Of a stretch of DNA of 4,669 nt, positions 52 to 2,021 are shown piece after piece; position 1 is the first letter of the stretch, and the number at the start of each line of letters is the position of its first letter. The stretch lies in IMG/VR virus record IMGVR_UViG_2667527839_000007; one strand, 5' to 3'. Below the pieces are notes generated by a model, which searched no databases, was not told where the DNA came from, and was given only the letters and a program-made list of their open reading frames with translations. This stretch comes from a virus. Taxonomy: Duplodnaviria; Heunggongvirae; Uroviricota; Caudoviricetes. The translations under genes were made by a program, and so were the position numbers.

Positions 52-207
52 TTACCCTGACGTGCATTGCTCAAGTTTTTTAGCCAGCACAAAACTGGCT
101 TTTTTATAGCCATTGAAAACCAGCCGTAAGTAGCCAGGTGTTGAGCCAACTTTTCCGGCCAACTCGCCCTGCTGTTCTTTGGTTAAAGAGTCCCAATACG
201 CTTTCAT
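52..207 (-). CDS. Cro/YdaS-family small HTH regulator (51 aa), divergent from the CI-like repressor
   Basis: The ORF-track entry 52..510 is a read-through; the internal ATG at 205-207 (minus) is preceded by GGAGGT (plus 217-222) with a 9-nt spacer. Product MKAYWDSLTKEQQGELAGKVGSTPGYLRLVFNGYKKASFVLAKKLEQCTSG has an HTH-like core resembling, from memory, YdaS/Cro-type prophage regulators. Divergent position opposite a CI-like gene. Confidence 0.7.
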   Translation of the reverse strand: MKAYWDSLTKEQQGELAGKVGSTPGYLRLVFNGYKKASFVLAKKLEQCTSG

Positions 208-984: not shown

Positions 985-1007
985 AACCTGCTTCGGCAGG
1001 TTTTTTT
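985..1007 (+). terminator. Rho-independent terminator of the repressor gene
   Basis: 7-bp stem AACCTGC/GCAGGTT with TTCG tetraloop followed by a run of 7 T (1001-1007), 13 nt after the stop codon at 970-972. The opposite strand has no T-run, so it is unidirectional. Confidence 0.8.
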
Positions 1008-1011
1008 ATAC

Positions 1012-1039
1012 TTGACAATGTACCTTTGAGATACATAAT
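1012..1039 (+). promoter_or_regulatory. PL-like early-left promoter (TTGACA-N16-CATAAT)
   Basis: Consensus -35 TTGACA at 1012-1017, a 16-bp spacer, and -10 CATAAT at 1034-1039 (5/6 match). Sits directly after the cI terminator, faces away from cI, and is overlapped by an operator-like site. Confidence 0.55.
1018..1036. promoter_or_regulatory. Operator-like site OL: ATGTAC-N7-ATACAT (one mismatch to the OR palindrome)
   Basis: TGTAC (1019-1023) N7 ATACA (1031-1035), inside the spacer and -10 of the PL-like promoter. A further TGTACC half-site lies at 1039-1044. Confidence 0.45.
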
Positions 1040-1216
1040 GTACCCAACCGAAACAACGAACAGGCAGGACGCCCACGAAGTAGCCGCCTAGGGCATATGA
1101 AGTCCAGGATGATTCGTTGAGTCATGTTGTGCCACCAGGCAATCATGTTAAAGCAGGTGTATGAAATGAAAGTCCAGATTTTAAACAATAACTGTGAAGT
1201 CGTTTGGGCGTAAAAC

Positions 1217-1423
1217 ATGACCGCGCGTAGACCAAGGGAGGAAAAAGTGGGAATAGTTAGAAATCAAGCAGATATATTGAAAATCAGCTCTGAATTACTT
1301 GGAGTTTTGAAAAGTGAGCTCACCGCACATGGCATCGAGCCCACTGACGAAAACTTAAGTTGGGTTTTGTCGATTATTCAACAATCACTCAAGCCCAGCC
1401 TCAGCAAACTTTTTATCGAGTAG
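1217..1423 (+). CDS. Hypothetical small protein, first ORF downstream of the PL-like promoter (68 aa from ATG 1217; 58 aa if GTG 1247 is used)
   Basis: The open frame has a weak SD before ATG 1217, but a strong AAGGGAGG (1234-1241) sits 5 nt before the in-frame GTG at 1247. N-terminus from 1217 is Arg-rich (MTARRPREEK). No family recognised. Its 3' end overlaps the convergent minus-strand ORF by 39 nt. Confidence 0.4.
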   Translation: MTARRPREEKVGIVRNQADILKISSELLGVLKSELTAHGIEPTDENLSWVLSIIQQSLKPSLSKLFIE

Positions 1424-1576
1424 TGCTTCGAACTTATCGTAAAGCTTGCTTATGTCGTCTATCGGGTTTTCTGACGTACTGTAATTTTTATCTGATGTCA
1501 TGGCAGCAGTCTGATATGCAGTGTGAGTCTTAACCGATAGTTGGAATAAATAAAGAATTTTTTCTTCTTTGGTCAT
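1385..1576 (-). CDS. Hypothetical small protein (63 aa), antisense to the early-left direction
   Basis: ATG at 1574-1576 (minus) preceded by AAGGAAAT (plus 1581-1588 complement) with a 5-nt spacer. Product MTKEEKILYLFQLSVKTHTAYQ...KKFAEAGLE is charged and likely helical. The longer ORF-track version (1385..1618) would start at GTG without an SD. No family recognised. Confidence 0.45.
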   Translation of the reverse strand: MTKEEKILYLFQLSVKTHTAYQTAAMTSDKNYSTSENPIDDISKLYDKFEALLDKKFAEAGLE

Positions 1577-1608
1577 AACTATTTCCTTCTTGGCTATATG
1601 AAAACACC

Positions 1609-1637
1609 AAGATACCACCGAGCCTGAAGTGGTGAAA
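1609..1637 (-). promoter_or_regulatory. Candidate promoter for the minus-strand small ORF (extended -10 TGnTATCTT)
   Basis: Minus strand reads TGGTATCTT (plus 1609-1617), about 25 nt upstream of the SD, with a weak -35-like TTCACC 16 nt further upstream. By eye only. Confidence 0.25.
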
Positions 1638-1837
1638 AGACAGGCACATAACAGCTAAGTATTTTCAACCAAAGAGAATCCTTAGCGTTGTGGTGAATGC
1701 GGCTCAGCGCACGCGGGTTAAGGTTGAGGCTGACAGTCGACCTTCTGTGGATACCCACCCGTCTGGTGTGCAACCTTCGCCAGGCACCGGGAGGCACCCG
1801 GCACCCGGCACCACAACTTTATGCTGTGTGTAGTCCT

Positions 1838-1884
1838 GGCGGTACCAGTTTGTACCCTTGCTTCCGGCTGGTACCGTCCTTTTT
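1838..1884 (+). terminator. Hairpin plus T5: candidate tL1-like terminator or attenuator upstream of the yfdP-like gene
   Basis: 9 perfect base pairs (1840-1848 CGGTACCAG with 1868-1876 CTGGTACCG), extendable to 11 with a G-U pair, a 19-nt loop, then TTTTT at 1880-1884. The loop is larger than in canonical terminators, so confidence is low. Confidence 0.35.
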
Positions 1885-2021
1885 ACAAAACAGAGAAGAG
1901 CATCACCGGACGACGGGCTCATAACCCAATCCATCCGGGCGGCTGCCACCGCAGGTGTTCTTCTCTGTTTTGTGGAGAAACTAATCGGCCTTGCAGGGTC
2001 GATATGATGAGGAGCAGCAAA

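Follow-up and report, generated by a model that had tools for sequence, protein, structure and literature searches.

A non-coding RNA island ahead of yfdP in an SfV/SfII-like prophage remnant: a predicted STnc100-class small RNA, its terminator and a Y-shaped leader

The viral record IMGVR_UViG_2667527839_000007 is represented here by a stretch of 4,669 nucleotides (hereafter the window), which is an exact piece of the chromosome of Escherichia coli strain 81, where a decayed SfV/SfII-like prophage lies at tRNA-Thr/proA. Positions 1577-2021 of the window, between a minus-strand open reading frame (ORF) and the yfdP gene, make up a non-coding RNA section of the early-left (PL-side) operon of this prophage remnant. 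There is a strong case that positions 1686-1884 are a small RNA (sRNA) gene together with its terminator. On balance we favour a composite design for the island, in which this sRNA, a terminator acting as a gate, a seed like that of the host sRNA RprA, and a Y-shaped regulatory leader are combined. Both the STnc100 family of prophage sRNAs and one sRNA from this locus, sRNA-17, were already known; what is new is the link between them, together with a distinct early-left clade and a family-wide pseudoknot of STnc100, and the identity of the prophage linker with the RprA seed. The Y-shaped leader, one arm of which copies the anticodon arm of the initiator tRNA, was found neither in Rfam nor in the searchable literature and is apparently undescribed.

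An initial annotation, made from the sequence alone, had marked the island as GC-rich, structured and free of genes, and had suggested a regulated tL-type terminator, a put-like cis-acting RNA or an sRNA gene. The composition is as described, with a GC content of 0.54-0.585 in 200-nt windows over 1601-2000, against 0.36-0.44 to the left and 0.36-0.49 to the right. The ORFs of the island are short and have no Pfam matches, and the only PGAP feature is a pseudogene labelled as a frameshifted hypothetical protein. The evidence supports an sRNA gene plus a tL-type terminator: a terminator precedes the yfdP-T genes, the homologous sRNA-17 has been mapped by rapid amplification of cDNA ends (RACE) and Northern blotting, and the structures covary. 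Two of the checks proposed at the outset were covariation among homologues and an Rfam scan; the former yielded compensatory changes in several helices, and the latter a single match in the window at E<=1, to STnc100 (RF02076) at 1665-1886 (30.0 bits, E 8e-4). What had been treated as one element proves to be several plus-strand modules, among which a separate Y-shaped leader (1880-1978) had been overlooked, as had a minus-strand promoter region. The left 60-80 nt (1577 to about 1640) are not part of the structured RNAs and belong to the minus-strand ORF, as its 5' untranslated region (UTR) and its probable promoter.

The sRNA-17 of E. coli K1 strain RS218, encoded by an mEp460-type prophage, is a 193-nt RNA defined by 5'/3' RACE and Northern blotting that increases in stationary phase (PMC7719688). 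Its authors reported an ArcA-bound promoter and no Rfam homologue; their primer table gives the ends as CGTTGTGGTGAATGCGCAGG... and ...GGCTGGTACCGCTCTTTT, and the orientation of the RACE primer and the Northern probe places the RNA on the yfdP strand (PMC7719688). Compared with the window through the mEp460 sequence and this primer table, sRNA-17 has the same locus between the repressor side and yfdP, the same strand, the same 5' end (CGUUGUGGUGAAUGCG), the segment CACCACAAC and the terminator, and it is of similar length (193 nt, against a predicted 192-199 nt). Its mapped 5' end lies at the base of the closing helix P1 described below, and its 3' RACE end falls at the homologous terminator. 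Identity does not extend over the full 193 nt: the alignment is confined to ~17 nt at the 5' end, to CACCACAAC and to ~50 nt at the 3' end. The internal ~110 nt cannot be aligned. In place of the STnc100 19-mer, hairpin D and pseudoknot of the window, sRNA-17 has another core; it also has ACAGCCACUGCUUU instead of the RprA-like linker, and its upstream region with the reported promoter is unlike that of the window. The shared 5' end, CACCACAAC and terminator nevertheless identify the window RNA as a variant at the sRNA-17 locus, predicted to occupy 1686-1884 on the plus strand and to measure about 199 nt, or 192 nt without a 7-nt duplication. Replacement of sRNA-17 by a cat cassette increased the reads of both downstream genes, to 47 (from 0.49) for yfdP and to 8.5 (from 0) for yfdR (PMC7719688), so that transcription through the locus reaches both genes.

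The core of the window RNA is of the STnc100 class, members of which, like the related PasD RNAs, are Hfq-associated prophage sRNAs of unexplained function. Its structural membership is well supported, while its score lies below the threshold for formal Rfam membership. The closing, acceptor-like helix P1 (..UGGUG/CACCA..) surrounds the hairpins as in the family and pairs GUUGUGGUG (1687-1695) with CACCACAAC (1809-1817) over 9 bp, both on the plus strand. P1 covaries across 34 diverse, non-redundant family members, pairs 4-7 each showing 4-5 pair types. Next to its 3' strand stands the invariant 3' hairpin of the family, contained in an exact copy of the invariant 19-mer CCGGGAGGCACCCGGCACC (1787-1805), which covers hairpin E (CCGGG-AGGCA-CCCGG, 1787-1801) as well as the beginning of the 3' strand of P1. 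This 19-mer recurs unchanged in at least 120 IMG/VR contigs, often in tandem arrays beside phage tRNA genes, and some relatives carry a compensatory version of hairpin E, GGUGG-AGGCA-CCACC. Hairpin D (1761-1785) consists of the stem strands GUCUGGUG and CGCCAGGC around the loop UGCAACCUU.

Further towards the 5' end the window departs from the family consensus. Where classic members have the hairpin CCCCU-GUGCGG-AGGGG after GGUGAAU, the early-left clade has as its counterpart hairpin A, GCG-GCUCAG-CGC (GCGGCUCAGCGC, 1699-1710), followed in the window by ACGCGGG, and two pairs of the STnc100 model are mismatched there. Beyond hairpin A, the segment AAGGUUG (1720-1726) pairs with CAACCUU (1771-1777) in the loop of hairpin D to form a pseudoknot that the Rfam RF02076 consensus structure does not contain. 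In 30 of 33 diverse family members the two regions are joined by a helix of 5 bp or more, with sequences that differ from member to member, as for instance AAGGCUGG/UCAGCCUU in phiES15.

SfV and SfII reach 39.5 bits with the STnc100 model and ST64B 35.1 bits, against 53-147 bits for classic members. Together with phiES15, where the gene stands upstream of kil, and several IMG/VR contigs, these phages form a distinct early-left clade, to which the window belongs, located downstream of a cI-like gene. What the window RNA has in common with STnc100/PasD RNAs is the GGUG/CACC closing helix, the identical 19-mer that includes hairpin E, hairpin D and the pseudoknot, as well as an intrinsic terminator at its 3' end. 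It differs from them in its scores of 30 to 39.5 bits, short of the gathering score of 47, in the replaced hairpin A and in lacking the TTGACx-17-TAAATT promoter typical of late-region members. The genomic setting differs as well, the window copy being part of the early-left operon, whereas classic copies occur in late-region tRNA arrays or near Q, stx and esterase genes. Such arrays comprise 2-5 tandem STnc100 genes beside phage tRNA genes, sometimes with isrI (loci L008, L012, L016, L024, L026 and L073), each copy having its own TTGACx-17-TAAATT promoter and terminator.

The initial annotation had drawn attention to a tandem heptamer, CACCCGG CACCCGG CACC, which is indeed present at 1795-1812 and adjoins the complementary GGCACCGGG at 1783-1791. 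Its second copy (1802-1808, plus strand) is not a feature of the element; it is a private, strain-specific 7-nt duplication inside the invariant family motif, which in this strain separates hairpin E from the 3' strand of P1. SfV, SfII, ST64B and mEp460 have a single heptamer. Among the matches listed, the 445-nt version of the island occurs in the source genome only, the listed relatives having 438 nt, and other E. coli copies show 48 nt where the 55-nt query spans the duplication site. Owing to the duplication the STnc100 score drops to 30 bits, compared with the 39.5 bits of the undisrupted SfV and SfII copies.

Between P1 and the terminator runs the segment UUUAUGCUGUGUGUAGUCC, of which 14 nt, the single-stranded linker UGCUGUGUGUAGUC (1822-1835, plus strand), align without a mismatch to the 3' seed of K-12 rprA. 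The linker lies directly 5' of the terminator, as the seed does in RprA (RF00034), and is likewise preceded by ACAAC; relatives of the window share at least 27 nt plus the terminator with RprA. In the relative from phage Eeyore the similarity runs through the terminator, giving 41 bits and E 0.05 with the Rfam RprA model, which has a gathering score of 70. In RprA this seed is the start of the 47-nt RNase E-processed form RprAproc, which is functional alone (PMC9262595, PMC6202311). The window RNA is nevertheless not RprA: it gives no Rfam RprA match at E<=1, it lacks the rpoS-pairing segment, its 5' domain is different, and it is prophage-borne rather than situated at ydiK-ydiL, so that neither a score of at least 70 bits, nor the locus, nor the rpoS segment is found. 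We considered rpoS activation through the linker and rejected it, as the duplex energies are at the level of shuffled sequences. Further resemblances were seen between RprA nt 29-50 (AAGCAUGGAAAUCCCCUGAGUG; K-12 rprA, L243:273-378) and the classic STnc100 5' end (GCAUGGUGAAUCCCCCUGAGCG), and between the ACAAC-seed-terminator part of RprA and the early-left clade; judged from these resemblances, RprA might have arisen through an internal deletion in a prophage RNA of this kind.

The hairpin followed by five T residues that had been recorded earlier is an intrinsic terminator at 1838-1884 on the plus strand, with an 11-bp stem (1838-1848/1868-1878), a 19-nt loop and the U-run at 1880-1884; a simple terminator scan gave no call here because of the 19-nt loop. 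A GC-rich hairpin and a following U-run are thus both present, and the conservation is compensatory: in ST64B, Eeyore, Kp4866-6 and others the stem is wholly different in sequence yet paired, and a T-run always follows. Three GTACC motifs around this hairpin had been proposed as echoes of an operator half-site. Those at 1842 and 1871 are where they were reported, whereas the middle one begins at 1852, not 1853. Two of them form the palindromic terminator stem (GGTACC) and the third lies in the non-conserved loop, where relatives differ while keeping the hairpin by compensatory change. We rejected the operator interpretation, because spacing and orientation are unlike those of the operators TGTACC-N5-GGTACA at 215-285 and 1018-1045 and the loop copy is not conserved. 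Over the whole window GTACC is found 21 times where 4.5 are expected, in some cases inside coding regions.

Overlapping the terminator U-run, a Y-shaped three-way junction occupies 1880-1978 on the plus strand. Its basal helix, leader P1, pairs 1885-1904 with 1954-1973 and can be extended to 1880/1978; above it stand the P2 arm (1906-1938) and the P3 hairpin (1939-1952). The minimum free energy of 1880-1978 has a z-score of -4.84 relative to shuffled controls, and no Rfam family matches this segment at E<=1. In an alignment of 38 distinct variants, pairing is kept in 95% of cells, and compensatory changes are seen at 9 pairs as against 0-3 in slid controls. The apical part of P2 carries an invariant tip, CGGGCUCAUAACCC (1914-1927), whose 14 nt exactly reproduce the anticodon stem-loop of the E. 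coli initiator, tRNA-fMet (metZ), with three consecutive G-C pairs and a CUCAUAA loop. The anticodon triplet, CAU at 1920-1922, is altered at its first, second and third positions in 2, 0 and 0 viral contigs respectively, compared with at least 120 contigs that have CAT; the first G of GGG is altered in 1 viral contig, and the variant contigs examined are single point mutants.

The invariant core pattern of the leader was found in at least 120 viral contigs and 21 species genomes, and all of these belong to the Enterobacterales, from Escherichia to Erwinia and Mixta, save for one chance match in a coding sequence and two probable contaminants. Its genetic partner is well defined: of the 78 non-redundant loci, 74 encode YfdR within a few kb downstream and 59 encode YfdP and YfdQ. 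The gene immediately after the leader varies between loci, and in SfII the leader is kept before yfdR although yfdP and yfdQ have been deleted. ARAGORN reported no tRNA in the window or in the sampled relatives, and the Rfam tRNA model (RF00005) found none in the window and, among the relatives, only those at L209 and L228. The conserved 18- and 19-mers do not occur in the searchable literature.

Directly after leader P1 lies a conserved GGAGAA (1974-1979), present in essentially all variants, even those without an upstream U-run, and a small hairpin, CGGCC-UUGCAG-GGUCG (1986-2001), precedes the Shine-Dalgarno sequence (SD) and start of yfdP. The stems of this hairpin vary (GGCGG/CCGCC, GCGCC/GGCGU, GGCGGCC/GGCCGCC) while its U/G-GCAG loop is kept. 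At L010, L024, L046 and L131 a GUGGAG(A/U)A box with a UUGCAG-loop hairpin follows directly on STnc100-like cores that lack the Y motif, and the variable P3 hairpin of the Y motif often has the same UUGCAG loop; such units could be repeated protein-binding sites. No GGAGAA plus UGCAG-hairpin twin was found on the cro side of SfV, ST64B or mEp460, in a nutR-like position, with the pattern used. In the yfdP start region (2004-2024) there are in-frame AUGs at 2004 and 2007, upstream of the annotated start at 2022, and AUGAUGAGGAG within this region overlaps the yfdP SD and is partially complementary to the CUCAU loop of the leader. A pairing of this loop with AUGAG at the ribosome-binding site or start is possible in yfdP-type and sb37-type leaders, in part of the set only, and we did not adopt it because it is absent in several other leaders.

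How these modules could work together can be outlined as follows. On direct evidence or by homology, the 5' two-thirds of the sRNA folds into a compact structure of several hairpins and a pseudoknot, of the STnc100/PasD class, with GUUGUGGUG/CACCACAAC as its closing helix, and the 3' third is a single-stranded segment ending in the intrinsic terminator. There is no promoter between the terminator (1838-1884) and yfdP, and the terminator would therefore double as a tL-type barrier, with yfdPQRST expressed only from read-through transcripts. The RprA-identical linker would serve as an Hfq-type seed, through which the prophage RNA, or an RNase E-processed 3' fragment of it comparable to RprAproc, may act in trans on a subset of RprA targets. 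Transcripts that pass the terminator would fold the conserved Y-shaped leader and present on one arm the copy of the initiator-tRNA anticodon stem-loop, and the leader would most likely control translation, processing or stability of the downstream module, with which, and most of all with yfdR, it is closely associated. With 20-25 bp, leader P1 would be long enough to serve as an RNase III substrate.

Several observations weigh against this interpretation. The cat cassette that replaced sRNA-17 probably reads towards yfdP, and the rise in yfdP reads may thus be a polar effect. The interior of the window sRNA is not homologous in sequence to the mapped sRNA-17, hairpin A departs from the family consensus, and the STnc100 gathering score of 47 bits is not reached. 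Neither a consensus scan nor comparison revealed a sigma-70 promoter just 5' of P1 in the early-left clade, so that the 5' end may be a product of PL-transcript processing or the start site of a weak promoter. The 7-nt duplication may inactivate the strain 81 copy, and the terminator has a U-run of only five residues. The duplex z-score of the putative seed against the rpoS leader is ~0, no better than shuffles, compared with -2 for RprA. Any specific mechanism for the Y-shaped leader deserves low credence at best.

A more far-reaching proposal, which we consider doubtful but worth setting out, is that the Y-shaped leader represents a new class of phage RNA mimicking the initiator tRNA, that the STnc100/sRNA-17 class is derived from a tRNA, and that RprA is a possible descendant. 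At L209:1077-1203(-), L228:3220-3344(+) and L246/L261 (Phytobacter) the slot of the STnc100-like core is filled by a tRNA-like gene with the T-arm GGGUUCGAAUCCC, an insert of ~64 nt and an acceptor helix, UGUGGUU/AACCACA, that is the same as P1; the Rfam tRNA scores are 43.9 bits for L209 and 28.7 bits for L228. A tRNA-like gene in this slot that shares the acceptor helix with P1 suggests that STnc100-class RNAs are tRNA-derived, and P1 would then correspond to the acceptor stem and hairpin E to the T-arm. For the leader, mimicry of the initiator would mean that the GGG-CUCAUAA-CCC arm docks in the 30S P site or engages initiation factor 3, thereby controlling initiation at yfdP or yfdR.

The arm could alternatively be an early-expressed decoy for nucleases that attack tRNA-fMet at its anticodon arm, of which VapC/MvpT of Shigella and Salmonella is an example. 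Widened to the whole element, this would make the acceptor-like and T-arm-like STnc100 core and the tRNA-fMet arm copy anti-defence RNAs that sequester or divert tRNA-targeting nucleases or tRNA-binding factors of the host, an explanation that we regard as unlikely. The anticodon arm of tRNA-fMet is where VapC/MvpT cuts, and the early-left operon, in which the element lies, is where anti-defence genes of lambdoid phages are carried. The identity of the 14-nt tip with that arm and its near-invariant CAU would fit such a role, as would the tRNA-like gene with the same acceptor helix in the core slot of some relatives (L209, L228, Phytobacter) and the location of classic STnc100 copies in tRNA arrays. 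However, the window contains no tRNA by ARAGORN or the Rfam tRNA model and the copy is confined to the anticodon arm, there is no nuclease known to depend on this arm alone, and the tight linkage to yfdR together with the position as an mRNA leader suggests regulation in cis.

A second possibility, to which we attach slightly less weight, is that the STnc100-like fold works within the PL transcript as a put- or nut-like antitermination RNA that modifies polymerase, or recruits Nus or N-like factors, and so allows read-through at 1838-1884. The early-left clade has no recognisable promoter, lies downstream of cI/PL and stands directly upstream of a terminator in many phages; several relatives have a boxA-like sequence, GUGCUCUCUUC, just 5' of P1, and an untranslated PL leader of ~640 nt would favour Rho termination unless polymerase were modified. 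The boxA-like sequence is, however, poorly matched in the window, and with the pattern used SfV and ST64B show no matching element on the cro side. Nor does the comparison with HK022 help the put-like reading that had been among the first suggestions: the HK022 immunity region has no STnc100-like match at E<=10, and blastn of window positions 1000-1700 shows no similarity to the putL/putR region. The distances differ as well, the window element being ~640 nt from the PL-like promoter whereas putL and putR lie just downstream of PL and PR. Moreover, members of the family in late regions are independent genes, each equipped with a strong promoter and a terminator, and accumulate as discrete Hfq-bound sRNAs (PasD/STnc100), and sRNA-17 accumulates as a terminated 193-nt RNA.

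An element acting only as DNA, whether a recombination sequence at a mosaic junction, an operator cluster or a cruciform, is very improbable. Mosaic breakpoints at 1611, ~1673 and 1837 and the over-representation of GTACC would be compatible with it, but G-U pairs, the strand-specific U-run, the seed and the SD fit an RNA, compensatory changes extend over four separate helices, the GTACC copy in the loop is not conserved, and transcripts of a homologue have been mapped. Least probable of all is a degraded protein-coding gene, as in the PGAP call of a frameshifted hypothetical protein at 1690-2007: although SfII is annotated with a 113-aa ORF at the island and ORFs of 47-81 aa are present on both strands, the call appears in both the 445-nt and the 438-nt versions and is frameshifted in each, indels of 1, 7 and 20 nt between homologues mean that the reading frame is not preserved, substitutions in the RNA helices are compensatory, an RNA has been mapped at the homologous locus, and we rejected a coding function for want of any Pfam match.

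The left edge of the island serves the neighbouring gene. Positions 1577-1640 hold the 5' UTR, SD (the reverse complement of 1584-1590) and the probable promoter and probable operator of the minus-strand ORF 1385-1576. Read from the sequence, the candidate -10 element is TATCTT (reverse complement of 1609-1614) and the -35 element TTCACC (reverse complement of 1631-1636), with a 16-nt spacer; a consensus promoter scan gave no call for a minus-strand promoter at 1577-1640. An inverted repeat ACCAC-N11-GTGGT lies at 1614-1634, and the block GATACCACCG(A/C)GCCTGA(A/T)GTGGT(G/T)AAAAG..CAGGC is conserved beside a minus-strand start codon in many relatives. In the window this block, GATACCACCGAGCCTGAAGTGGTGAAAAGACAGGC at 1611-1645, contains the nested inverted repeats ACCAC/GTGGT and GCCTG/CAGGC; at L200 and in Mixta the RprA-like seed and terminator follow directly after it and the STnc100-like core is missing. 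Part of the island is present in 2785 of 5426 complete E. coli genomes, about half, and the STnc100-like core in 1508 of the 5426, more than a quarter.

The layout of the wider window is as follows. A cro-like gene (52-207, minus strand) and a LexA-family repressor gene (298-972) are followed by a terminator (984-1003) and a strong PL-like promoter (1012-1039) that agrees with the consensus at 11 of 12 positions; operator-like inverted repeats TGTACC-N5-GGTACA at 215-285 and 1018-1045 flank the cro/cI and PL promoters. Two ORFs, 1217-1423 (plus) and 1385-1576 (minus, WP_000159356), converge with a 39-nt overlap, and PGAP annotates only the latter; some 640 nt of the PL transcript 5' of the sRNA would thus be untranslated and partly antisense to a gene. 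On the far side of the island, yfdP (2022-2384, start codon at 2022, SD GAGGAG at 2009-2014) is followed by yfdQ (DUF2303), yfdR (5'-deoxynucleotidase), and homologues of yfdS and yfdT. This gene order makes the plus strand the sense strand of the early-left operon.

The surroundings have been reshaped by insertion sequence (IS) elements, which cut the cro side of the strain 81 prophage, with IS1, IS5 and IS3 insertions nearby (L001). SfV (L002:1230-1418(-)) and ST64B (L004:407-595(-)) have a C4 antisense RNA (82 and 80 bits) with isrK (64 bits) to the right of cro, forming an immunity module of the P1 immI type; the window lacks this part on account of the IS1 insertion. In the K-12 prophage CPS-53 (L006, 5248-5604) yfdP-T are kept, whereas the sRNA, the terminator and the leader are all gone, the rearrangement junction lying just 5' of the yfdP ribosome-binding site. 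CPS-53 was therefore rejected as a model, its loss of the entire island making K-12 data uninformative on this question.

Comparison with other known systems places the element apart from each of them. DicF, from the dicBF operon of Qin, is likewise an sRNA in a PL-equivalent operon beside an immunity region, its 3' hairpin (GGCGGUAUCAG..) is similar to that of the window (GGCGGUACCAG..), and the L228 relative scores 28 bits with the Rfam DicF model. However, DicF is 53 nt long, is released by RNase III and RNase E, and has another seed and no structured 5' domain, leaving the terminator as the only likeness. The leader copies the anticodon arm of tRNA-fMet without the cloverleaf of a tRNA. 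The E. coli thrS leader is a tRNA-mimicking mRNA operator that presents a copy of a tRNA anticodon arm, and in the metY-nusA-infB operon a tRNA gene is followed by a long hairpin and then the mRNA, a layout resembling the arrangement of sRNA, leader and yfdP. Here, by contrast, the leader copies the arm of the initiator tRNA and has neither a synthetase gene nor a translation gene downstream of it, and the element is phage-borne, confined to Enterobacterales and linked to yfdR.

The analysis joins sRNA-17, the STnc100/PasD prophage sRNAs and the host RprA seed, which had earlier been treated separately. The family-wide pseudoknot and the tRNA-like topology provide structural hypotheses for a class so far modelled as simple hairpins, and the Y-shaped leader is a well-supported motif with an exact copy of the initiator-tRNA arm and a defined genetic partner in yfdR. 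Should the seed prove functional, temperate phages of Shigella, E. coli and Salmonella would tap part of the RprA regulon, much as StxS mimics activators of RpoS.

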